Source: an uncultured Actinomycetes bacterium
Lineage (GTDB): Bacteria; Actinomycetota; Thermoleophilia; UBA2241
NCBI GenBank assembly: GCA_963764225.1
Contig: CAVXRL010000008.1
Coordinates: forward strand, 126,362-190,361
Reading direction: 5' to 3'
Length of the DNA stretch: 64,000 bases
Shown here piece by piece: positions 4,196 to 43,228 of the stretch. Positions within the stretch are counted from its first letter, which is position 1; each line of letters opens with the position of its first letter. The translations under genes were made by a program, and so were the position numbers. The notes beneath the pieces are model-generated. The model saw only the letters and a list, made by a program, of their open reading frames with translations. It ran no database searches and was not told the DNA's origin.

Positions 4196-4231
4196 CGCGG
4201 GCCGTCCCGGAGGCCGCAGGAGGGCGATGCC

Positions 4232-5792
4232 GTGAGGGACGATCTGTATCTGGGCCTCGACGTCGGCTCGTCGAGCACGAAAGCCGTGCTCGTCGGGGCA
4301 GACGGGGTCGTGGTCGCCGACGCGCGCATCGAGCACGGCATCTCGCGCCCGCAGCCGGGCTGGGCCGAGCAGGACGCCGAACGTGACTGGTGGGGCGGCG
4401 TGGTCGAGGTGTGCCGCCGCGTGCTCCCGGGCAGCGCCGCGCGCGTGCGCGCCGTGGGCGTGAGCGCCCTCGGCCCCTGCGTCCTCCCGGTCGCCGGGGA
4501 CGGGCGCGCGTTGCGGCCCGCCATCCTCTACGGGATCGACACGAGGGCGGTCGCGCAGATGGAGCGGCTGACCGCCGAACTGGGCGCGGAAGAGATCCTC
4601 GCCCGCTGCGGGTCGCGGCTCTCGAGCCAGTCGGCGGGACCGAAGATCCGCTGGCTCGTCGACGAGGAGCCGGGCGTGTGGTCCGCGACCCGGCGTGTCT
4701 TCGGCGCGAGCTCCTACCTGGTCTCGCGCCTCACCGGCGAGTACGTCCTCGACCACCACAGCGCCAGCCACTGGGCGCCGCTCTACGACGTCCACACCAA
4801 CGCCTGGATCGAGGAGTGGGTGGAGGCGGTCGCCCCGGGGCTGCTGTTGCCGCGGCTGGTCTGGCCCCAGGAGGAGTGCGGGGCCGTGAGCCGTGAGGCC
4901 GCGGCGGCGACCGGCCTGCCGCGGGGCGTTCCCGGTCGTCGCCGGCAGCATCGACTCCTGGTGTGAGGTGGCAGCCGCCGGCTTGCGCGGCCCGGGCGAG
5001 GGGCTCCTCGTCTACGGCACGAGCATGTTCCTCGTCGAGGTGCACAGCCCGGCGCGGCCCGATCCGCGGCTGTGGAGCACCGTGGGCTTCGCACCGGGCG
5101 CGCTGAACATCGCCGCCGGGGTGGCCTCGGCCGGGGCGCTCACCTCCTGGCTCCAGGACCTCACCGGTGAGGTCCCGTACGAGATCCTGTACGAGGAGGC
5201 CGCCGCGGCGGGGACCGGCGCCGGCGGCCTCCTCGCGCTGCCGTACTTCGCCGGCGAGCGCACGCCGCTGTTCGACCCGGACCTTCGCGGCGCGCTGCTG
5301 GGGCTGACCGCGGCGCACGGCCGGGGGCACCTCTTCCGGGCGCTCATGGAGGCCGCCGCCTTCGCCGTGCGCCACAACCTCGAGACGATGCGCGAGGCGG
5401 GGGCGACCATCGCCGGCCTGCGCAGCAGCGGCGGCGGGGTGGCCGGCGCGCTCTGGCCGCAGATCGTGAGCGACGTCACCGGGCTGGGGCAGGACGTGCG
5501 CAGGGGGCCGTCCCGCGCGGGCGTCGGCGCCGCTCTCTTCGCGGCGGTGGCCTCCGGCGCGGCGTCGCTGCAGACGCGCTGGCCGCAGCCGACGGAGCGC
5601 GTGGAGCCCGACCCGGAGGCGGCGCTCCTGTACGACGAGCTCTACGGGCGCTTCAGCGAGCTGGCGAGCGCCACCCGCCCGCTCGCCCACGCGCTCGCGG
5701 TCTGGCAGCGGGCCCTCGCGCATGACACGATGACGCCGGTGGAGAGGGACGGGGGCGACCACCCCGCAGAAGGACGAAAGGGGACGACATGA
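4232..5792 (+). CDS. FGGY-family carbohydrate kinase (xylulokinase-like), with an apparent frameshift near ~4930.
   Basis: LYLGLDVGSSSTKAVLV…GWAEQDAERDWW is in ORF 4232..4966. The kinase continues in ORF 4893..5792 (…GSIDSWCEV…YGTSMFLVEV…LPYFAGERTPLFDPDLRGALLGLT…). Confidence 0.7.
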
Positions 5793-12821: not shown

Positions 12822-14126
<1,305 letters not shown>

Positions 14127-14217
14127 GGTACAGCAGAGGGGAGGCAGGCTCCGAACGACGGTCGCGGCGGCTCGGGCGGTCGGGATCGAGTCGTGCGTCA
14201 CGACCGCCCGGCGTCGC

Positions 14218-15654
14218 TCAGGATTCGCAGGCTGCTGCCGCAGGGCCCTTCTCGAAGCGCATCTTGCACATCGCGTACTCCTCCGGCACGGCGATGGGGT
14301 AGTCGCCGTCGAAGCAGGCGCGGCAGAACTGGCTGCGCGGCAGGCCGGTGCTGGCCTGCAGGCCGTCGAGCGTGAGGTAGTGCAGGCTGGTGGCGCCGAC
14401 GTGGTCGCGGATCTCGTCCACCGACTTGTTGGCCGCGATGAGTTCCGTGCGCGTGGCCATGTCGATGCCGTAGAAGCACGGCCACTGGATCGGCGGCGAG
14501 CTGATGCGCAGGTGCACCTCGGCGGCGCCGGCGTCGAACAGCATCTGCACCAGCCGGCGCGTGGTGTTGCCGCGGACGATGGAGTCGTCCACCACGACGA
14601 GCCGCTTGCCCTTGATCACCGAGGTCAGCGGGTTGAGCTTCATGCGGATGCCCACCTGGCGCAGCTGGTCGTCGGGCTGGATGAAGGTGCGGTGCACGTA
14701 GCGGTTCTTGATGAGGCCCTCGGTGTAGGGGATGCCGGAGGCGGCGGCGTAGCCGATCGCGGCCGGCATGCCCGTGTCCGGCACGGGGACCACGAGGTCG
14801 GCCTCGACCGGCGCCTCCAGGGAGAGGTGCTTGCCCATCTCCTGGCGCACCACGTGGAGCGTCTTGCCGTTCATCACGCTGTCGGGCCGGGCGAAGTAGA
14901 TGAACTCGAAGATGCAGAGCGCCGGGCGCGCGCCCTCGAGCTCGACGCGCTCGCTGCGCAGGCCGTGCTCGCTGTCGGCGATGACGATCTCGCCCGGCTG
15001 GATCTCGCGCACGAAGTCGGCGCCGATGATGTCGAGCCCGGAGGTCTCGCTGCTGAACACCGGATGTCCCTCGTAGTCGCCGAGGCAGAGCGGGCGCACG
15101 CCGTAGGGATCGCGGAAGCCGACCACGGCGTCGCCGCTCATCACCGCGGCGGAGAAGGCGCCACGGATCTTGCTGACGGCGGTGCGCACGCCCTCGAGCA
15201 GGTCGCCCTCGGCCTCGTGCGCGATGAGCGCCGTGATGACCTCGGTGTCGGTGGTGCCCGAGAACTTGACGCCTTGGGCGACGAGCTCGTCGCGCAGCTC
15301 CGTGGTGTTGACGAGGTTGCCGTTGTGCCCCAGCGCGATGACGTCGCCGTTGCGGCTGCGCACCAGCGGCTGCGAGTTCGACCAGTGGCTCGACCCCGTC
15401 GTGCTGTAGCGCACGTGGCCGATGGCGTGCTGGCCGCTGAGGCTCTGGAGCATCTGCTCGTTGAACACCTGGCTGACCAGGCCGAGGTCCTTGATGACCG
15501 TGACCTGGCCGTCGTCGGCCACCGCGATGCCGGCGCTCTCCTGCCCGCGGTGCTGCAGGGCGTACAGCCCGAAGAACGTGAGGCGCGCGACGTCGTGCCC
15601 CGGCGCGTGGATGCCGAAGACGCCACAGCTGTCGTGGAGACGATCGTCGTACAC
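14218..15654 (-). CDS. purF: Amidophosphoribosyltransferase.
   Basis: The N-terminal Ntn motif is MYDDRLHDSCGVFGI, followed by …GHVRYSTTGSS… and a PRTase motif (VVVDDSIVRGNTTR). Confidence 0.95.
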   Translation of the reverse strand: MYDDRLHDSCGVFGIHAPGHDVARLTFFGLYALQHRGQESAGIAVADDGQVTVIKDLGLVSQVFNEQMLQSLSGQHAIGHVRYSTTGSSHWSNSQPLVRSRNGDVIALGHNGNLVNTTELRDELVAQGVKFSGTTDTEVITALIAHEAEGDLLEGVRTAVSKIRGAFSAAVMSGDAVVGFRDPYGVRPLCLGDYEGHPVFSSETSGLDIIGADFVREIQPGEIVIADSEHGLRSERVELEGARPALCIFEFIYFARPDSVMNGKTLHVVRQEMGKHLSLEAPVEADLVVPVPDTGMPAAIGYAAASGIPYTEGLIKNRYVHRTFIQPDDQLRQVGIRMKLNPLTSVIKGKRLVVVDDSIVRGNTTRRLVQMLFDAGAAEVHLRISSPPIQWPCFYGIDMATRTELIAANKSVDEIRDHVGATSLHYLTLDGLQASTGLPRSQFCRACFDGDYPIAVPEEYAMCKMRFEKGPAAAACES

Positions 15655-25563: not shown

Positions 25564-27090
25564 CTACTGCCGGATGATGACCGGCATGCCGATCACGACG
25601 TACTCGTACAGTTGCTCGACTTCCCAGATGTGCATGCGGACGCACCCGTGGGAGGCGTAGGAGCCGACGGAGGCGTCGTCCGGCGTGCCGTGGATGCCGA
25701 CGCCCGGGGCGCTGGTGCCGATCCAGCGGGTGCCGAGCGGGTTGTCGACGCCCGGCGGGATGGGCTTGGCGTCCTTGGCCCAGTCGGAGTTGGGCGGGTA
25801 CCACGTGGGGTTCATCAGCTTGGACGTGACCACGAAGGAACCGGTGGGCGTGGGGTACTTGGCCTGGCCGGTGGCGACGGAGTAGCTCTTGATGAGCTTG
25901 CCGCCGCGGTACAGATACAGCTTGAGGTCGCCGACGTCGACGACGATCTGCCCGCTGAGCGCGTTGAGCACGTCGCCGCCGACGATGCCGTCGACCTCGA
26001 GCCCGTACTGGGCCTGCAGCCTGCGCACGGCCTTCTCGGTGTCGGCGTCGTAGAAGCCGGACTTCTTGCCCGAGTAGACACCCGCGTCGTCGAGCTTGCC
26101 CTGGAGCTCCCGGACGTCCTTGCCGCGGGCGCCCGGCCAGAGCGTGGCCGAGCCGAAGCGCTCGGTGCTGTCGACGACGAAGGACTGCTTGCGAGTGACG
26201 ACGTTGCCGCCCTTGTCCTCCACGGAGACGATGACGGTGTGCTTGCCCTGGGCGAGGTGGTCGGCGGAGTACCTTGCCTTCGAGGCGGGTCCGTCGAGTT
26301 CCCGCTCCTCGCCGTCCAGGACGAGCTTGACGGCCGGCACGCCGAGCTGGTCGGTGGCCTTGACCCGCACCGTGAAGCGGGGCTTGTGCAGGGTCTTGTC
26401 GAGCTGGGTCATCTTGAGCACGGGCGCCTGCGCGTCGACGTACACGGTGAGCCGCCGGGCCCGCGTGTTGCCGGCGCGGTCGGAGGTGGTGATGACCACC
26501 TGCGACTCGCCGGGCGGCAGGTCGGCGGTGATCGAGTACTTGCCGTCCGCGTCGGCCTCGCCGCTCGCCTTGACGTCGCCTGCCGTGACGGTGACCTTGG
26601 CCGAGGGCTCGGTCTCGCCGCTGATGACGGCCGGATCGGTGTTGATGCGCCCCTCTGCGACGTCGGTGGCCAACTCGAGGGTGGGCACGCTCGTGTCGAC
26701 CGTGAAGTGCCAGCCTTTGCTCACGTCGCGGCGGAACAGGTTGGAGCTGGTGGCGTCGAAAGAGACGGAGTGCTTGCCGTCTGAGAGGCTGCCGGTGGTG
26801 ATGGTGAGCGTGTCGCCCTCGCGCCGGGCGGCGGCGGTGACGTCCTCGCCGTCCAGCGTGACCGTGACGTCCTTGAGCGCGCTCAGCCCGTGCACGTCGA
26901 GCACGAGCGAGGTCGATGAATCCTTGACGTAGGCGTCGGGGCCCGGGGTGACCGCCGACACGCGCGGCACGCCGTAGAGCTGCCACCCGAGGACGGCCGA
27001 GAACGCACAAACCGCCGCGATGACGATGTATGGCCAGCGGCGGCGGCGAGGGCGTTCGCTCTTATAGACGTGGTAGCGCGCGTCCGGCAC
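25564..27090 (-). CDS. L,D-transpeptidase (YkuD) with Ig-like/Big domains and a PG-binding domain.
   Basis: The C-terminus …GIHGTPDDASVGSYASHGCVRMHIWEVEQLYE is the LDT catalytic HxxxxxxSHGC motif. A PG_binding_1-like LQAQYGLEVDGIVGGDVLNAL lies upstream. Confidence 0.85.
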   Translation of the reverse strand: MPDARYHVYKSERPRRRRWPYIVIAAVCAFSAVLGWQLYGVPRVSAVTPGPDAYVKDSSTSLVLDVHGLSALKDVTVTLDGEDVTAAARREGDTLTITTGSLSDGKHSVSFDATSSNLFRRDVSKGWHFTVDTSVPTLELATDVAEGRINTDPAVISGETEPSAKVTVTAGDVKASGEADADGKYSITADLPPGESQVVITTSDRAGNTRARRLTVYVDAQAPVLKMTQLDKTLHKPRFTVRVKATDQLGVPAVKLVLDGEERELDGPASKARYSADHLAQGKHTVIVSVEDKGGNVVTRKQSFVVDSTERFGSATLWPGARGKDVRELQGKLDDAGVYSGKKSGFYDADTEKAVRRLQAQYGLEVDGIVGGDVLNALSGQIVVDVGDLKLYLYRGGKLIKSYSVATGQAKYPTPTGSFVVTSKLMNPTWYPPNSDWAKDAKPIPPGVDNPLGTRWIGTSAPGVGIHGTPDDASVGSYASHGCVRMHIWEVEQLYEYVVIGMPVIIRQ

Positions 27091-27217
27091 TGGCCCCTGC
27101 TTGGACTTCCTCGACTTCTTGGACGAAACTGCTCCGCATTATAGCAGGAGCCTTCGGCATTCTGGTCGTTTTGCATAAGCGTTGCCATGGGACGATCGTC
27201 CGACTAAGGTCCGAGGA

Positions 27218-27989: not shown

Positions 27990-28435
27990 CCAGCGTCCCC
28001 TTCATCCTCCGGGACCACCGCGAGGAGCTCTGGCGGCGGTGGGCCGGCAGCATGGGCGACGAGGTCGCGGCCGACTACCGGGAGATCATGGCGAGCCCGC
28101 TGGGGGAGCGGTACGTGCGCGCCTTCATCGACGACCTCATCGCCTGGAGCGAGGCCGAGGAGTACGAGGCGCCCAGGGTGCTCCGCCAGGCCTGCGAGCG
28201 CGTGGCGGCCGACGCCGCCAACCGCCTCGCCCTGGGCTTCACGGCGCTCGACATCGCGACCGCCCTGCAGGCGCTCCACGGCGCCGTGGTGGACGTGCTG
28301 ATCGACGCGCTCGTGCTCGGCGAGCTGCCCTCGTTCGCCGACACGCTCGAGCAGATCAAGGCCTGCGCCCGCTTCATCGACCGCCTCGTGGTCGCCGTGC
28401 TGGCGGCCCCGCCGGCGTCCGGCGAGCAGTACTGA
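27986..28435 (+). CDS. Hypothetical protein, possibly an RsbRD-N-like sensory domain.
   Basis: GTG start overlapping the upstream stop (GTGA). A 149-aa alpha-helical protein with no catalytic motifs. The assignment is tentative. Confidence 0.35.
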   Translation: MTSVPFILRDHREELWRRWAGSMGDEVAADYREIMASPLGERYVRAFIDDLIAWSEAEEYEAPRVLRQACERVAADAANRLALGFTALDIATALQALHGAVVDVLIDALVLGELPSFADTLEQIKACARFIDRLVVAVLAAPPASGEQY

Positions 28436-28490
28436 GCGCCGGCCGGGGACGGGGTTGCGCCCGTCCGGGGCCGGCAGTAGGGTCGCTGGC

Positions 28491-29561
28491 ATGCTGAGGC
28501 TGGCACTCATCTTCGGTGGGCGCTCCGCGGAGCACGACATCTCCCTCGCCTCGGCCCGCTTCGTCTCCTCCATGCTGGACCGGGACGAGTACGACGTCAT
28601 CCCGGTCGGCATCACGCCGGCAGGCCGCTGGGTCGTGCCGGCGGACTTCGACGCCGCGACCGCCGAGGGACTGGACGCCGTGGCTTGCCGGGCCGCGCAC
28701 CTGGTCGCCGACCCCACGCGGCCCGGCCTCGAGCTCGACGACGGCTCCTTCCACCCGCTCGACTTCGCCTTCCCCATCATGCACGGCACGTTCGCCGAGG
28801 ACGGCACCATCCAGGGGCTCCTGGAGATGGCCGGCGTCGCCTACGCGGGGTCGGGCGTGCTGGGCAGTTCGGTCGGCATGGACAAGGAGCTCATGAAGGC
28901 CGTGTTCGCCACTGCCGGCCTGCCGCAGATGGACTACCTGGCGCTGCGCGACGGCGAGGCCACGGGCCCGCGCGCCGTCGCCGCCGTCGAGGAGCGCCTC
29001 GACTACCCGGTGTTCGTCAAGCCCGCCAACCTGGGCTCGAGCGTGGGCATGACCAAGGCTCACGACCGCGCGGAGCTGGTGGAGGCCTTCGCGCTCGCCT
29101 CGACCTACGACCGCAAGACGATCGTCGAGGCGACCTGTGACGGCCGGGAGCTCGAGTGCAGCCTGCTCGGCAACGCCGACGTGCGCGCGTCGGTCCCCGG
29201 CGAGGTCATCCCGGCCAACGAGTTCTACGACTACGAGGCCAAGTACACCGAGGGCATGATGGCGTTCAAGATCCCGGCCGACGTGCGCGAGGAGCACCTG
29301 CGCACGGTGCAGGAACTGGCCGTGGCGGCCTTCAAGGCCATCGACGCCAGCGGGTTCTCGCGCTGTGACTTCTTCCTCGAGACGGCCACCGACCGGGTGA
29401 TCCTCAACGAGATCAACACCATCCCGGGCATGACCGCGATGAGCGGGTTCCCCCGCCTGTGGGCGGCGTCCGGGGTGGACGGCAAGGCGCTCATCGAGGA
29501 GATCGTGCAGCTGGGGCTCGAGCGCCACGAGCGTCTCGCCCGCCTCAAGATGGCGCGCTGA
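28491..29561 (+). CDS. ddl: D-alanine--D-alanine ligase.
   Basis: MLRLALIFGGRSAEHDISLASA…IMHGTFAEDGTIQGLLEMAGVAYAGSGVL…VFVKPANLGSSVGM…EINTIPGMT. Confidence 0.9.
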   Translation: MLRLALIFGGRSAEHDISLASARFVSSMLDRDEYDVIPVGITPAGRWVVPADFDAATAEGLDAVACRAAHLVADPTRPGLELDDGSFHPLDFAFPIMHGTFAEDGTIQGLLEMAGVAYAGSGVLGSSVGMDKELMKAVFATAGLPQMDYLALRDGEATGPRAVAAVEERLDYPVFVKPANLGSSVGMTKAHDRAELVEAFALASTYDRKTIVEATCDGRELECSLLGNADVRASVPGEVIPANEFYDYEAKYTEGMMAFKIPADVREEHLRTVQELAVAAFKAIDASGFSRCDFFLETATDRVILNEINTIPGMTAMSGFPRLWAASGVDGKALIEEIVQLGLERHERLARLKMAR

Positions 29562-36125: not shown

Positions 36126-36424
36126 CGTCCCTCTCCTTGCGGCGGCGGCCAGTCTGCAGAATCGCGGCAGCAAGGCCTTGCGTTCGTCGTGTTGATTGCC
36201 AGGGGCGCGGCGACGACTGCTTGCCGGCCCCGTTCGTTTCGTGACCTCGCCAATTTGGAGGCACAGCGACGCACCACCCTCCGAGCATCGCGCTTGCTCC
36301 ATACGACGAGAGAGGGGACGCTCCACTCTCTGATTGTCTGGCCTGCGACAAGCCGTCTGTGCCGAGCGCCGTTTCGGGACGGGAACACTCCGTTTTGAGA
36401 GATGGCGACCACTGAGAGGCCGGC

Positions 36425-37267
36425 GTGGCTGACGACGACATGAGAGAACGCGACGCGGTGGACGACGGCGAGGCCGGTCGTGCCGGGCCGGCGGCCGAAG
36501 GTGAACCGGCTCACGGGCCCGTGCGGTACTCCCGGCGGCGCCTTCTCGTGCTCGGCGGCGCGTTCGCCGCCGGCCTCGCCGCCGTGATCGCCGGTGTGCG
36601 CGCCCTCGGAGGTCCCTCCGAGGTCGCCGACAAGGTGGGCGGCCCCGTAGCCGACCAGTTCGGGACCTTCCCGGTGCGCAGCGTGGAGGACGTGCCCGAC
36701 GTGCCCGCCGGCGAGTGGGTCGTGAAGGTCGACGGCCTGGTCGAGACGCCCCTCACCGTCGACCGGACCACGTGGAACGGCCTGGAGCGCGGCGACGAGG
36801 TCGTGGACTTCCACTGCGTGGAGGGCTGGGGCGTCGACGACGTGCGCTGGGGCGGCGTGTCGCCGTCGGTCCTCCTGGACCAGGCCGGCGTGAGACCGGA
36901 GGCCAGGTACGCCGTCCTCCACGCCTACGGCGGCGTCTACAGCAGCAGTCTGCCGCTGGACCTCATGCGCGATCCCCAGACGCTGCTGGTCGACCAGCTC
37001 GGTGGCCGGCCGCTGCCCCCCGAGCACGGCGGCCCGCTCCGGCTCGTGGTGCCCAAGCAGCTCGGCTACAAGAGCGTCAAGTGGGTGCAGCGCGTCGAGC
37101 TGACCGCGGAGAGCAAGCCGGGCTACTGGGAGTCGAACGGCTACCCGGACGACGCCCCGTCTCCGGGGGCTGAGCCGCCTCACTCCCTGCGGGCCACGGG
37201 TTTCGCCCGGCGCCCCGGGTGGGCACGATTCCGCGCGGACGGCCGTTGTCGCCGCCGGGCGCGGTAG
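36425..37267 (+). CDS. Sulfite-oxidase-family molybdopterin oxidoreductase (YedY/MsrP-like) with a TAT-type signal.
   Basis: [18 protein letters not shown] looks like a twin-arginine signal. …[18 protein letters not shown]…[26 protein letters not shown]…GYWESNGY is the oxidoreductase molybdopterin-binding domain. Confidence 0.8.
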
Positions 37268-37326
37268 ACTGGAGTCCGCGCCCGACCACTGCGCTCCCGA
37301 CCCACAACGTGCTCCAGGAGGCGAGG

Positions 37327-37491
37327 ATGACCAAGTACATCTGCACCGTGTGCGACTATGTCTACGACCCCGAGGTCGGCGACCCCGACAACGGCATCGA
37401 GCCCGGCACGGCCTTCGAGGACCTCCCGGACGACTGGGTCTGCCCCGAGTGCGGTGTGGAGAAGGAAGAGTTCGAGGCGCTGGAGGACTAA
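37327..37491 (+). CDS. Rubredoxin.
   Basis: GGAGGCGAGG-ATG, then [50 protein letters not shown] (two CxxC pairs). Confidence 0.9.
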
Positions 37492-38814: not shown

Positions 38815-38957
38815 CAGTCCCGCGGCCGGCGGCCGCCCCACACGAAGAACAGGGGCAGGAGAAGGAGGGTGAAGCCGAAGAAGCGGCGCGAGACGGCGTA
38901 GACCAGCGCCGCGACGAGCACGGCGACGAGCAGGCTGATCCAGAACCTGGAAGACAT
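38814..38957 (-). CDS. Small (47 aa) two-helix membrane protein, translationally coupled (ATGA) to the downstream gene.
   Basis: MSSRFWISLLVAVLVAALVYAVSRRFFGFTLLLLPLFFVWGG…. Confidence 0.35.
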   Translation of the reverse strand: MSSRFWISLLVAVLVAALVYAVSRRFFGFTLLLLPLFFVWGGRRPRD

Positions 38958-39078
38958 GGGTGTAGCCTGCCGCTCGACCCGAGGGCGCGCAAGCCGCCGC
39001 CGTCACGGTGGCGCGTCCCCGGGCTGCTGTGATTACGTAACACGGCCCGAGAACACCCGCAGCCTGAGGAGGCAGTGC

Positions 39079-40551
39079 GTGAAGCGCAACCTGTTCGCCG
39101 GTCGTCGCCGTAGCGGTGGCCTCAAGTTAGACGTCTTCACCGAGGACGAGATCCAGGACATCCACCTCGCCACCCTCGAGGTCCTCGAGCGCACCGGCGT
39201 CTGGGTGGAGCTCGACGAGGCGCTCGACATCTACAGCGACGGTGGCTGCGTCGTGGACCGGGAGACGCACATCGTGCGCATCCCGCCTCACGTGGTCGAG
39301 GACGCCGTCGCCAGCGCGCCGCCCAAGGTGGTGCTGTGCGGCCGCGACCCCAGGAACGACATCTGCCTCGAGCCGGGACGCGTGGGCTTCAGTAACTTCG
39401 GCGAGGGCATCAAGGTCATCGACCCGACCGACGGCCAGCTCCGGCCCTCCACCAAGGAGGACCTCGGCAACATCGCCCGGCTCGTCGACGCGCTGCCGGA
39501 GGTGGACGTCTTCGAGATGGCCGTCGTCAGCAGCGACAAGCCGCCGGAGTCGTTCAGCCTGCACAACCACGAGGCGGCGATCGTCAACCAGACCAAGCCG
39601 ATCTCCGGCGGAGCGCAGGACGGCGACGCCGTCCACCGCACGGTGGACATGCTCGCCGCCGTCCAAGGGGGCAAGGACGAGGTCAGGCGTCGACCGATGA
39701 TGGTCATGGGTACCTGCCCCGTCAGCCCGCTCAAGCTGGTCAAGGACTTCTGCGAGATCGTGATCGAGTCGGCGCGCGTGGGGCTGCCGAGCTGCGTGCT
39801 CAGCATGGCGATGGCCGGCGGCTCCAGCCCCGTCACGCTCGCCGGCACGCTGGTCACCCACAACGCCGAGGTGCTCGCCGGCATCGTGCTCGGCCAGCTG
39901 ACGGAGCGCGGCAGCAAGCAGCTCTACGGCTCGTCGACCACCGCCATGGACCTGCGGCTGGTGGCGGCGTCGGTGGGCACGCCGGAGTGCGCGCTCATCA
40001 GCGCCGGCGCGGCGCAGCTCGCCAGGCAGTACCGCCTGCCGAGCTACATCGCCGGTGCGTAGGCAGACTCCAAGCTCGGTGACGTGCAGACCGGTCACGA
40101 GAAGACCCTCACGGCCCTCATGGCAGCGTTGGCAGGGACCAACCTGATCTACGGCCTGGGAATGATCGAGTCGGGCGTCACCTTCGATTACGCGCAGCTC
40201 GTCATCGACAACGAGATGGCGCGGATGATCAAGCACGTCGTGGGCGGCGTGCGCGTGGACGACGAGTCGCTGGCGGTGGACGACATCGCCGCGGTGGGGT
40301 CGTTCGGCGACTTCCTCAGCCTCGACGCGACCATGCGCCACATGCGCGACACCTCACAGCCGGAGCTCATCGACCGCCGCGTCCGGGAGGACTGGGAGCG
40401 GCGCGGGGGCACCGACATGTACGCGCGCGCCATGGAGAAGGCGAAGGGCCTGCTGGCCGATCACCGGCCGGAGCCGCTGCCCGACGACGTGCTCAAGCAG
40501 GTCAGGGACATCGTCGACAAGGCGGACCGGGAGCGCGCGCCCCAGGCGTGA
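39079..40551 (+). CDS. mttB: Trimethylamine:corrinoid methyltransferase MttB, with an in-frame amber codon (TAG at 40060-40062) at the pyrrolysine position. The full-length product requires UAG read-through.
   Basis: AGGAGG-N6-GTG start. …LDVFTEDEIQDIHLATLEVLERTGVW…LSMAMAGGSSPVTLAGTLVTHNAEVLAGIVLGQLT…[48 protein letters not shown]…QLVIDNEM… ORFs 38956..40062 and 40084..40551 are in the same frame. The total is ~490 codons with UAG at codon ~328 (compared with Pyl334 in M. barkeri MttB). Confidence 0.85.
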
Positions 40552-40650: not shown

Positions 40651-41700
40651 TCAGGACTGCGGGAGGCCGGACCCGCGCGCCGGCGCCGAGGGCGGCGTCG
40701 CGGTGCTGCCGTCCCAGGAGTCGCCGGAGTGCAGGTGGACGATGAGTGTGTAGGAGCCGGAGGTCCCCGGCGTGTAGGTGTACGCACCGGGGACCAGGCC
40801 GGGCTGCATGGGGGCTCCGCTGCTCGGGTCCTGCGGCCAGTCCGGGTGCGCGGTCCCGAGTGCGCCCGTGGGGGAGACGTCGACCACGCGCGGCAGCGCC
40901 CCCGCGTGCCGGAGCGCCCACTGATCGACGTAGCCCGAGAGGATGCGCCCGCTGCGGCGCAGGATCTCGTCCTCGAGGTTCGTGAGCAGTTGCTGCCAGG
41001 GGCTGGAAGCCATCGCTCCCGAGAGGACGTAGTCGTGCTTGAGCGCGCGGTGAAGGCGCAAGGTATAGGAGGAGCGGTCCGGAGAGACGCTGTACGAGAA
41101 CGAGCCCTTGCTCTGCCCCTGCCGCATCACGTAGTGGTCCCACGGGTCGCTGGGCCAGTACCGGCGGCGCGGCTCGAGGCCCACCGGCCCGTCGGCGCGC
41201 ACGTCGGCGGGCAGCGGGTAGAGGCCGTGGTGCGCCCGCGCGTACTCCTCGATGTACTCACGGATGAGGTTGGCGCCCTCCTCACCGCGGTGGTCGTAGG
41301 CGAGCATGACGATGCGCGGCATGCCTCCCGAGACGACGTACGTGCGGCCGCCGTCGAGGTACCCGACGAGGCGGTAGCGGCGCCGGTCGGGCGCGACCGT
41401 GTAGCGGTAGTGCCCGCGGGTGGTGCCCGGGAGCATGGCCGCGCCGGTCCACGGGTCGTCCGGCCACCAGGCGCCCAGACGCCCGGGCTGCACCCTCCGC
41501 GCCCGCGGGTACAGGAAGAAGCGTGTGCCGGCCTGACGGTCGATGAGGCCGCGCAGCGCCATGATGCCGTCGCGCATCTGATCGTCCGGTGAGGTGGCGC
41601 GAGCCGTCGCGCCGGCGCTCGCGCAGAGCAGGACCGCCGCGAGGAGTGCAAGCCCGAGGATGAGGGTGGTGCGCCGGATCATGTGCGTGGTGGTGGCCAT
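40651..41700 (-). CDS. Secreted protein with three tandem ~85-aa pseudopilin-like repeats.
   Basis: Signal peptide MATTTHMIRRTTLILGLALLAAVLLCASAGA. Repeats carry WPDDPW…YRYTVAPD…YRLVGYLDGGRTY, WPSDPW…FSYSVSPD…YTL…, and WPQDP…PM…YTYTPG…YTLIVHLHSGDSW. Confidence 0.55.
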   Translation of the reverse strand: MATTTHMIRRTTLILGLALLAAVLLCASAGATARATSPDDQMRDGIMALRGLIDRQAGTRFFLYPRARRVQPGRLGAWWPDDPWTGAAMLPGTTRGHYRYTVAPDRRRYRLVGYLDGGRTYVVSGGMPRIVMLAYDHRGEEGANLIREYIEEYARAHHGLYPLPADVRADGPVGLEPRRRYWPSDPWDHYVMRQGQSKGSFSYSVSPDRSSYTLRLHRALKHDYVLSGAMASSPWQQLLTNLEDEILRRSGRILSGYVDQWALRHAGALPRVVDVSPTGALGTAHPDWPQDPSSGAPMQPGLVPGAYTYTPGTSGSYTLIVHLHSGDSWDGSTATPPSAPARGSGLPQS

Positions 41701-41836
41701 TCCCTCCGCAGTGTGGCGGCGCGTACCGGTCATTTCAAGCGCGCCGCACGTTCCCGGCCGGCGTCTCCTGCTACCATTCGCCCTGCGCGCCCCGGAGCCT
41801 GCGGAGTCGCGCGAGGATCCGTGGCGATGAGGGGAG

Positions 41837-43228
41837 ATGGCGGTGGAGGCGAAGATCCCGACCCGGATGGGCGACGGCTTCATGGTCGAGATGACGCGCA
41901 GCGAGCTGCGCGCCGATCTGGAGGAGGCGACGCGGGCGGCGGCGAGCAAGGCCAAGGTGCCGCCGCTCACGCAAGACGAGCTCGACCACCTGCTGGACAT
42001 CTACGCCTCGCGCGCGGCGTTCACCGCAGTCGACATCGGCGACCAGGTGGTGCTCAGCTGCGACGGCGGCGGCAGCAAGATGACCGGGACCGACCTCCTC
42101 GACCTGCTGGAGAGCGAGCAGCGCCTCGGCCAGGACATCCTCGAGCTCTGGCACATCGAGTACAGCTACAAGGCGATCAAGACGATCCTGCCGTTCCAGC
42201 AGCAGGTGATGCAGAACGTGCAGCTGATGTGCACGGCGCCGGTGCAGTACGGGGCGCAGCCCAACCTGGCCTTCTACAGCAAGCCCGACGGCCCCGCGGA
42301 GAACTGGTTCGAGCTGCTGCCGCGCGGGGACATCGCCGGCGCCCGCGCGGCCATCGGCGAGGCCATGGACCACGCCACCAAGGACTTCATCTACGTGGGC
42401 GAGGGCATGCTGGACGCCGGCGCCGACGGCATGGACTTCGACACCACCGGCGGCGCCGGCGACGCCGACTTCTTCAGTACGCTGCGCGCGGTCCGCCACC
42501 TGCGCGAGAAGTACCCGCACGCCGGCATCGAGGTCGGCATGGCCGGCGAGTTCGTCATCGGCGTCCACGGCGAGCTGGAGTGGGAGGGCCGCCGGCTCGC
42601 CGGGCTCTGGCCCAGGGAGCAGCTCGAGGTGTGCCAGGACGCCGGCGCCACGATCTTCGGGCCGGCGGTCAACATCCGCACCGGCAAGAGCTGCGCCTGG
42701 AACGCGGCGTACTCCATCACCGTCACCAAGCCGTGCATGGACGCGGCCCGCATCCCGGTGCACCCCAACGTCGGCGAGGGCGTCGGCGGCGTGCCGGTGA
42801 ACGGCTACCCGCCCGAGGACGCCGCTTCCCGGGCGGCCAGGGCGCACGTCGACATCCTCAAGTGCGACGGGTTGTAGGTGGGCTCGGGTGACTCCAGAGG
42901 CATGGACGTCACCCACGCGCTCGCCGCTGGCATGGGCGGGATGCGCACGGCCGGAGACCTGGTCGCGCGCATGCAGATGTCACGCGGGATGCGCCTCCCC
43001 GAGGCCAAGAAGTACGTCGCGGAGAAGCTGGGCTGCACGGTCAGGGACCTGAGCGACAGCTACGCGATGGAGCAGATCCGCGGCGAGAAGGGTCTGGGAA
43101 GGATCCTCGACCACTCCAACCTGCACCCCGGGGAGCCGAACGCGATGACGGCGAAGTTCCGGATCGCCGAGCTGCTGGACGTGCCGGTCAGCTCGGTGGA
43201 GCGTTTTCGGGAGCTGGCGGGTCTGTGA
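41837..43228 (+). CDS. mtbB: Dimethylamine:corrinoid methyltransferase MtbB, with an in-frame amber codon (TAG at 42875-42877) at the pyrrolysine position.
   Basis: MAVEAKIPTRMGDGFMVEMTRSEL…DFDTTGGAGDADFFSTLRAV…AGIEVGMAGEF…[65 protein letters not shown]… ORFs 41837..42877 and 42878..43228 share a frame. The total is 463 codons with UAG at codon 347 (compared with Pyl356 in M. barkeri MtbB). Confidence 0.85.

Follow-up and report, generated by a model that had tools for sequence, protein, structure and literature searches.

An in-frame TAG codon runs through a dimethylamine methyltransferase gene (mtbB) of an uncultured soil bacterium of the class Thermoleophilia (Actinomycetota, ~71% G+C), which raises the question of whether this codon terminates, splits or inactivates the gene or is read as pyrrolysine (Pyl). 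The gene lies in a stretch of 64,000 nucleotides (nt) that we analysed as a whole (referred to as the window in the rest of the text; all positions relate to it and to its forward strand). With a probability of roughly 88%, we favour the reading that the mtbB UAG encodes Pyl within an uninterrupted, full-length enzyme of the MtbB family.

The TAG codon of mtbB and its conservation

Sequence and translation place the mtbB frame between an ATG at 41837 and a TGA at 43226-43228, with the TAG at 42875-42877 as its sole interruption. As stated in an earlier reading of the same DNA made from its letters alone (the sequence-only reading), the two sense open reading frames (ORFs) that flank the TAG, 41837-42874 and 42878-43225, share one frame and are separated by nothing else. 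The ORF listing accordingly gives the gene as two halves, 41837..42877 and 42878..43228. Its parts are as follows.

41837-42874, forward strand: mtbB upstream of the UAG; 346 codons if counted from ATG 41837, 344 from GTG 41843
42875-42877, forward strand: in-frame TAG, predicted pyrrolysine codon at residue 347, from the PYLIS_2 alignment and its conservation in mtbB copies (see below)
42878-43228, forward strand: mtbB downstream of the UAG; 116 codons followed by the TGA stop, with the motif ...GxGD...GM...AGDLVARM

For profile searches, we substituted a lysine (K) at the TAG to build a joined product of 463 amino acids (aa). Residues 8-459 of this product matched positions 4-462 (of 463) of the Pfam family PF09505 (Dimeth_Pyl) in a single stretch, with 517.5 bits against a cut-off of 25 and an E-value of 3.6e-155, and the product scored 383.9 bits against the NCBIfam equivalog TIGR02368, the cut-off of which is 369.1. 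A concealed frameshift in the gene is thus ruled out, and what follows the TAG is the genuine C-terminal end of this protein and not an unrelated ORF. The assignment of the 463-codon product to MtbB is thereby confirmed: mtbB codes for a genuine, full-length member of the dimethylamine:corrinoid methyltransferase family, 461-463 aa long. The range reflects the choice of start codon. A Shine-Dalgarno-like sequence, GAGGGGAG (41829-41836), directly abuts ATG 41837 and lies 6 nt ahead of GTG 41843, and this second start codon (MEAKIPTRMGDG...) is the one called in most mtbB orthologs (344-aa gene calls). Since GTG 41843 has the better Shine-Dalgarno spacing and agrees with the calls in the orthologs, it is probably the start in preference to ATG 41837, in which case the protein has 461 aa.

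A scan of the window at Rfam gathering thresholds returned exactly two matches, PYLIS_2 at 42875-42974 in mtbB and PYLIS_3 at 40060-40159 in mttB, each of which starts at the TAG of its own gene.

38956-40551, forward strand: mttB, companion gene 1.3 kb from mtbB, with its own in-frame TAG at 40060-40062

Model positions 1-100 of PYLIS_2 (RF02509) aligned on 42875-42974 with 62 bits (gathering score 36), so that positions 1-3 of the model, the UAG, fall on window positions 42875-42877. The TAG thus stands in the Pyl column of MtbB, and the translated PYLIS_2 consensus equals the archaeal MtbB context given in the sequence-only reading. Its observation that mtbB and mttB carry one TAG each also held, and in a six-frame scan of the 64 kb only these two TAGs had a clear coding signal on both sides.

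More than 100 clusters, 58-94% identical, came up in a protein search with mtbB. Almost without exception they have 344-346 residues, and they end at DG[L/Y], because gene callers cut all of them at one residue. Scanning one genome per GTDB species yielded 79 mtbB loci, nearly all from metagenome-assembled genomes (MAGs) of uncultured Thermoleophilia or unclassified Actinomycetota/Actinomycetes; the MAGs that bear mtbB were recovered from soils in Denmark (MFD series), from peat and lake sediment, and from bioreactors. Between ~36.4 kb and 53 kb, several of these loci run colinear with the window at 78-90% nucleotide identity, which places the window in the class Thermoleophilia. Relatives at the 95-96% level include CAWIDR01, CAVTPJ01 and CAWCSR01. 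Conservation was counted over the window and 80 related loci (these loci, and further contigs discussed below, bear L numbers). In this set the TAG directly follows DG[L/Y/F] in 104 of 104 mtbB copies (52-100% protein identity), and in every one of them the conserved C-terminal part continues in frame after it, usually for ~116 codons, a few of these parts being longer or running off the stretch that was read. The TAG of mttB is kept in 43 of 43 close mttB copies, and the distant members of the MttB superfamily found in the loci (identity ≤36%) have sense codons at this site, as do the known non-Pyl members of that superfamily. Strict retention of TAG in the Pyl families, together with sense codons in non-Pyl MttB, is the pattern expected of a catalytic Pyl.

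These counts also bear on the explanation that the codon is a nonsense change that arose here by chance, in a pseudogene or through a sequencing or assembly error. Errors do occur in this material, since the window contains at least one frameshifted gene (an FGGY kinase at 4196-5792) and indel errors are seen in long-read MAGs of relatives, for instance in the split pylC of L084 and L085. However, the errors observed are indels and not substitutions, the identical TAG is present in every mtbB copy across dozens of independent assemblies, the C-terminal part stays in frame over the whole range of identity, and the G+C content at third codon positions (GC3) is 0.91-0.99 on the two sides of the TAG (0.99 for the pre-UAG part). 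The explanation is already refuted in practice. The invariant TAG in mtbB and close mttB and the sense codons in distant MttB therefore exclude chance nonsense mutation, pseudogene formation and error as the cause of the mtbB TAG; the sequence-only reading had likewise judged a coincidental nonsense mutation or a sequencing error implausible.

A second alternative is that the gene is truly split, translation terminating at the UAG and the 116-codon ORF being translated separately from GTG 42878, with subsequent assembly of the two polypeptides. In the window a GTG does stand directly after the TAG and is called as a start in the ORF listing. Among the 109 copies compared at this position, however, the codon is GTG in 68 and a non-start codon (GTC, GTA, GCG, GCA, ATC or ATA) in 41, so no restart codon is conserved; the PF09505 match crosses the TAG junction unbroken; and archaeal MtbB is a single chain with Pyl at this site. 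We regard a split gene as very improbable.

Decoding of the mtbB UAG as Pyl does not entail that the codon has lost its usual role. TAG ends 175 of 861 (20%) composition-supported ORFs in the related loci, in agreement with the figure published for bacteria that encode Pyl (PMC9723677), and at least four ordinary genes of the window stop at it.

25564-27138, reverse strand: L,D-transpeptidase with a TAG stop; read-through would add 14 codons
36416-37267, forward strand: molybdopterin oxidoreductase with a TAG stop; read-through would add 20 codons
46923-47633, forward strand: S-adenosylmethionine (SAM) methyltransferase with a TAG stop; read-through would add 191 codons
47630-48577, reverse strand: zinc alcohol dehydrogenase with a TAG stop; no stop within the 600 nt checked beyond it

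Because TAG still accounts for ~20% of ordinary stops, UAG has two meanings in these genomes, and there is no genome-wide reassignment.

The family has also expanded within genomes. Single 21-kb loci (L056, L069, L072, L079 and others) hold three to five diverged mtbB copies that are 52-63% identical to the window copy, each with the TAG, an expansion that hints at several substrates for MtbB. One assembly in the set, JBLMXT01, is labelled 'Deltaproteobacteria bacterium MAG248'. Its locus L019 carries mtbB and mttB genes ~95% identical to those of the window and its locus L073 carries diverged mtbB paralogs seen in other Thermoleophilia MAGs; its taxon label or binning is probably wrong.

A conserved hairpin in the mtbB message

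The possibility of a PYLIS-like fold after each of the two UAGs, raised in the sequence-only reading, was borne out in part. Folding of the 100 nt that begin with the mtbB UAG (42875-42974) gave a minimum free energy of -56.8 kcal/mol (z = -3.18), which none of 200 shuffles reached. The stretch after the mttB UAG folded no better than its shuffles (z = +0.5 and +1.2), and no such fold was found there. The structures of the mtbB message were then compared in an alignment of the 100 nt from the UAG of 109 distinct mtbB copies.

42877-42925, forward strand: stem-loop right after the UAG, stable in the window gene and close orthologs
42941-42972, forward strand: conserved mRNA hairpin within the mtbB coding sequence, 64-96 nt past the UAG

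The stem at 42877-42925 is paired in 73.7% of cells across the 109 copies and is not kept in the paralogs; helix 1 of Rfam PYLIS_2 has several non-canonical pairs in the window gene. The hairpin at 42941-42972 is paired in 94.6% of cells and is the only helix in the RNAalifold consensus. Its outer stem joins 42941-42946 with 42967-42972, and its inner stem, which is helix 2 of PYLIS_2, joins 42948-42954 with 42959-42965 around the loop AGAC (42955-42958).

Counting the T of the TAG as 1, four pairs of this hairpin covary, 69:96, 72:93, 75:90 and 78:87, all of which involve third codon positions; pair 75:90, for example, alternates between ACG...GTC, ACC...GTG and ACT...GTA. The covariation score of the hairpin is 0.245, compared to 0.077 ± 0.007 for column shuffles (0 of 500 reach 0.245) and to at most 0.057 when the partners are slid by 1-3 columns. 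Parsimony on a neighbour-joining tree of the flanking protein sequence counts 8, 11, 11 and 3 independent paired-to-paired double changes at the four pairs, respectively (~33). One G·U pair is present in all copies (109/109) and another in all but one (108/109), from which it follows that the structure acts on the sense RNA and not on the DNA. Codon choice in the hairpin is equally constrained: its Gly codon is GGA in all 109 copies, although GGA makes up 4.2% of the Gly codons in the rest of these genes, and the Asp codon that follows is GAT in 57 of them (52%), compared to 8.4% elsewhere. In the resulting motif GGAGAY (42953-42958 in the window), the inner stem is closed by the two leading bases, and the loop consists of the four that follow. 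The hairpin at 42941-42972 is under RNA-level selection. As a separate observation, the conserved GGAGAY contains a Shine-Dalgarno-like GGAG.

A 2013 paper on consensus downstream structures likewise assigns a canonical structure to mtbB and finds none in mttB; the terms covariation and compensatory are absent from it (PMC3639795). Work in E. coli, in the summary given there, found that PYLIS is not essential for Pyl insertion (PMC3639795). Of our results, only the hairpin covariation goes beyond the literature consulted. As for its role, the hairpin may aid read-through indirectly or stabilise the message.

Pyrrolysine genes in the relatives and the reading of UAG in this cell

The first search for homologs of the pyrrolysyl-tRNA synthetase PylRS returned Methanosarcina only. 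A high-G+C PylSc (P0255) was reached via a representative library and then used as the query, whereupon many proteins of 284-286 aa were recovered, one of them named by NCBI 'pyrrolysine--tRNA(Pyl) ligase large subunit [Thermoleophilia bacterium]'. In one relative, PylSc (P0497; 314 bits against TIGR02367) and an mtbB ortholog lie on the same 1,137,818-bp contig, contig_19728 in ENA (L081), which is CAVPCT010000003.1 (L022); this ortholog is 84% identical to the window copy and has the TAG. In another, a single NCBI MAG (JBAZPK01) contains both PylSc (P0413, on JBAZPK010000196.1, L083) and an mtbB ortholog 87% identical to the window copy (L017). Directly after pylSc, L081 (10001-12830) carries another mtbB copy, also with a TAG, and an MttB fragment; pylSn, pylT and pylBCD do not lie within 10 kb of this pylSc and must be elsewhere in that genome.

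Loci L084, L085 and L088 have the same upstream gene arrangement as L081-L083 (amidase, pylSc, TldD/PmbA, GluRS) and contain the complete set of genes. NCBIfam scoring of the five Pyl proteins was carried out on L084/L085, where all were above their cut-offs except the frameshifted halves of pylC.

pylSc, L084/L085: TIGR02367, 312.7 bits
pylSn, L084: TIGR03912, 119.6 bits
tRNA-Pyl with anticodon CUA, L084, L085 and L088: found by ARAGORN
pylD, L084/L085: TIGR03911, 205.9 bits
pylC, L084/L085: TIGR03909, in two halves split by an assembly frameshift
pylB, L084/L085: TIGR03910, 423.8 bits

The pylC frameshifts of L084 and L085 differ in otherwise identical contigs and are assembly indels. L088 has the same gene order with fitting Pfam domains and its own tRNA-Pyl, and at the pylC position an unsplit ATP-grasp gene of 397 aa, a candidate pylC by position. 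The order of the locus (10001-15549 in L084/L085, 8001-15441 in L088) is amidase, pylSc, pylSn on the opposite strand, a gene for a Germane/Gmad2 lipoprotein, tRNA-Pyl, pylD, pylC and pylB; in L088, pylSc is followed by a corrinoid protein, which lies beside it, and a radical SAM gene. In the relatives the locus sits among gltX, cysS, leuCD, leuB and gatB, and this embedding in housekeeping genes suggests vertical inheritance.

Several observations weigh against reading the mtbB UAG of this cell as Pyl, or against parts of that reading. ARAGORN found no tRNA gene in the 64-kb window; PylS, PylB, PylC and PylD were absent by Pfam from its ~50 GC3-supported ORFs; and tblastn with the PylRS sequence of M. 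mazei (confirmed against the PDB at E 1e-183) gave no homolog in the window or in the flanks of the 80 mtbB loci. From this last result, the pyl genes are not adjacent to mtbB in the Thermoleophilia clade. The 64 kb thus contain no proof of Pyl synthesis by this cell. A corrinoid protein was not found among the window ORFs, either by Pfam or by a scan for the DxHxxG motif. The TIGR02368 score exceeds the equivalog cut-off by just 15 bits, and genomes with up to four or five diverged mtbB paralogs occur, on account of which the substrate of this copy may be other than dimethylamine; dimethylamine is the substrate that family membership predicts for the window MtbB. A search for a solved MtbB structure found none, so the placing of residue 347 in the active site is by analogy with MtmB and MttB. 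At the RNA level, the hairpin lies too far off for contact with a ribosome positioned on the UAG. Synonymous-site diversity after the UAG is low (entropy 0.33-0.45, compared to a mean of 0.56 for the mtbB gene), yet other segments of mtbB are lower still, and it is the pairwise covariation, not the entropy profile alone, that shows RNA constraint.

Two window genes were considered as members of the pyl set and rejected: 28302-29561 encodes a genuine D-Ala-D-Ala ligase (Ddl), while the product of 12822-14615, a radical SAM protein, has a SPASM domain and so is not PylB.

An empty window is also what would be seen if the UAG were read through without Pyl, a near-cognate or suppressor tRNA inserting a standard amino acid in a lineage that had lost the pyl genes or never had them. 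The window has neither a pyl gene nor a tRNA-Pyl, and the same-contig link in the relative covers pylSc only, the other genes lying beyond 10 kb of it in L081. Against this stand the strictness of the TAG in mtbB and mttB, with sense codons at the corresponding site of distant non-Pyl MttB in the same loci, and the complete pyl loci of the same clade, which include tRNA-Pyl and lie in a conserved setting of housekeeping genes. We consider read-through by another tRNA improbable, if slightly less so than a split gene. Decoding as Pyl accommodates the empty window as well: since ARAGORN detects tRNA-Pyl in the relatives, its absence from the window means that the gene is located elsewhere. The claim of the sequence-only reading that the cell decodes UAG as Pyl is thus sustained by the TAG column, its conservation and the pyl genes of the relatives; the window itself has no pyl gene. 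Judging from these relatives, Pyl is likely inserted in this cell too.

In MtbB, Pyl binds and activates the methylamine, whose methyl group is taken up by a dedicated corrinoid protein in its Co(I) form. In the window gene, codon 347 would be read by pyrrolysyl-tRNA(Pyl) with anticodon CUA. This tRNA, the split synthetase PylSc plus PylSn, and PylB, PylC and PylD would be encoded elsewhere in the genome, as they are in a single locus in the relatives. The Pyl side chain would sit in the active site, bind and activate the methylamine, and the acceptor of the methyl group would then be Co(I) in a second protein, a corrinoid protein that is not encoded beside mtbB and that may come from a second mtbB-mttB-corrinoid cluster or from the pyl locus, as in related genomes. 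Pyl decoding at the UAG would compete with release factor 1, as in other Pyl-using bacteria, and the hairpin 64-96 nt further on may help read-through or shield the message while the ribosome pauses at the UAG. Analogous roles of Pyl in MtmB and MttB are discussed elsewhere (PMC9842639).

Gene neighbourhood, comparison with known systems and significance

The two TAG-containing genes of the window are separated by a gene on the opposite strand.

40651-41740, reverse strand: gene between mttB and mtbB, predicted secreted repeat protein without a Pfam match

Because of this intervening gene, mttB and mtbB do not form one operon in the window. Its product of ~360 aa has a signal-peptide-like N-terminus and internal repeats (…PWxxxPxxPGxYxYT…), and syntenic Thermoleophilia MAGs have the gene at the same place, with a Pyl gene on either side. 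The same flanks, this divergently transcribed secreted protein on one side of mtbB and a membrane protein on the other, are present in the syntenic relatives. A second arrangement occurs in related MAGs, where a paralog cluster has the order TetR, mtbB (TAG), mttB (TAG), corrinoid protein and non-Pyl MttB homolog; several of these MAGs also contain an mtbB locus of the window type. The corrinoid proteins of related MAGs, located by a DxHxxG scan followed by Pfam, have ~213 aa and the domains B12-binding_2 plus B12-binding.

Some further features of these loci deserve mention. In L070 (12907-15249; also L079, 12809-13531), the corrinoid gene of the paralog cluster (12907-13545 in L070) stops at a TAG, and in L070 the gene after this TAG is the non-Pyl MttB-family member, in the same frame, such that read-through by tRNA-Pyl would fuse both; the arrangement is possibly coincidental, as one in three pairs of neighbouring genes would be in frame anyway. 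Interrupted ORFs in L070 and L079 (433 aa + ~100 aa) were considered as new recoded genes and rejected, one being a further mtbB with upstream read-in and the other fixC with fixX behind it in a shared frame. Upstream of the mttB-mtbB region of the window, 36416-37491 codes for a molybdopterin-binding oxidoreductase and a rubredoxin, and a rubredoxin is also found near the L087 locus; that rubredoxin might be the redox partner that reactivates the corrinoid is speculation. The FGGY-family sugar kinase at 4196-5792 lies in two overlapping frames (FGGY_N at 4196-4966, FGGY_C at 4890-5792), its frameshift being either that of a pseudogene or a long-read assembly indel error.

Pyl-containing MtbB, a split bacterial PylS and a dual UAG are textbook knowledge for methanogens and for some Firmicutes and Deltaproteobacteria. 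The window MtbB is full length and of the same family as MtbB of Methanosarcina, with a single UAG in the same column and the motifs DG-O-xGxGD...GM...AGDLVARM (O being Pyl) common to both. It differs in that its host is a high-G+C actinobacterium and not a methanogen, that no mtbC corrinoid gene or coenzyme M methyltransferase is adjacent, that several paralogs occur per genome, and that its score is barely over the equivalog cut-off. In MttB/MttC, for which structures are available (PMC9842639), the chemistry would by analogy be the same, with Pyl activating the methylamine for transfer to a Co(I) corrinoid, but MtbB belongs to a non-homologous family. With respect to RNA, the match to PYLIS_2 (RF02509) is above the gathering score from the UAG onwards and its helix 2 is the inner stem of the hairpin, whereas helix 1 is poorly kept here; the PYLIS of mtmB (RF01982) and bacterial selenocysteine insertion sequences (SECIS) adjoin their codon, unlike the helix described here.

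Bacteria reported to use Pyl include Desulfitobacterium, Acetohalobium, Bilophila, the Olavius delta-1 symbiont and marine Deltaproteobacteria (PMC1976440, PMC8318568, PMC9630628). The Thermoleophilia have in common with them the split of PylSc and PylSn, the cluster of pylB, pylC, pylD and tRNA(CUA), ~20% UAG stops and Pyl methylamine methyltransferases. They differ in phylum, in the spread of the trait over dozens of species-level MAGs and in the synteny of the pyl locus with gltX, cysS, leuCD and gatB. A 2022 survey counted two Actinobacteria among 81 bacterial genomes with PylRS (PMC9630628), and our full-text literature searches found no paper treating Pyl in Thermoleophilia. The novelty thus lies in the host lineage, in which the Pyl trait appears widespread, the kind of gene being already known.

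A wider proposal can be put forward only tentatively, and we think it somewhat unlikely to hold in full: that the hairpin would be a functional mRNA element shared with archaeal mtbB, not a by-product of the AGDLVAR peptide, which raises Pyl insertion or protects the mRNA, and that the Thermoleophilia of soil and peat would constitute a large, vertically inherited and undescribed reservoir of Pyl decoding, with an expanded MtbB family possibly acting on other amines.

For annotation, the consequence is that standard gene callers split all of these genes, so that the annotation of MAGs and the metabolic reconstruction drawn from them are systematically wrong at these loci. The high G+C background of the Thermoleophilia exposes RNA-level selection and provides unusually clean evidence for a structure past the UAG of mtbB, which reopens the question of what PYLIS-like elements do. 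Decoding of UAG as pyrrolysine is extended firmly into the Actinomycetota, to the Thermoleophilia, a class whose members abound in soils and in peat. By implication, methylamine use in these bacteria proceeds via corrinoid-dependent methyl transfer, a route usually linked to methanogens, anaerobic Firmicutes and Deltaproteobacteria.

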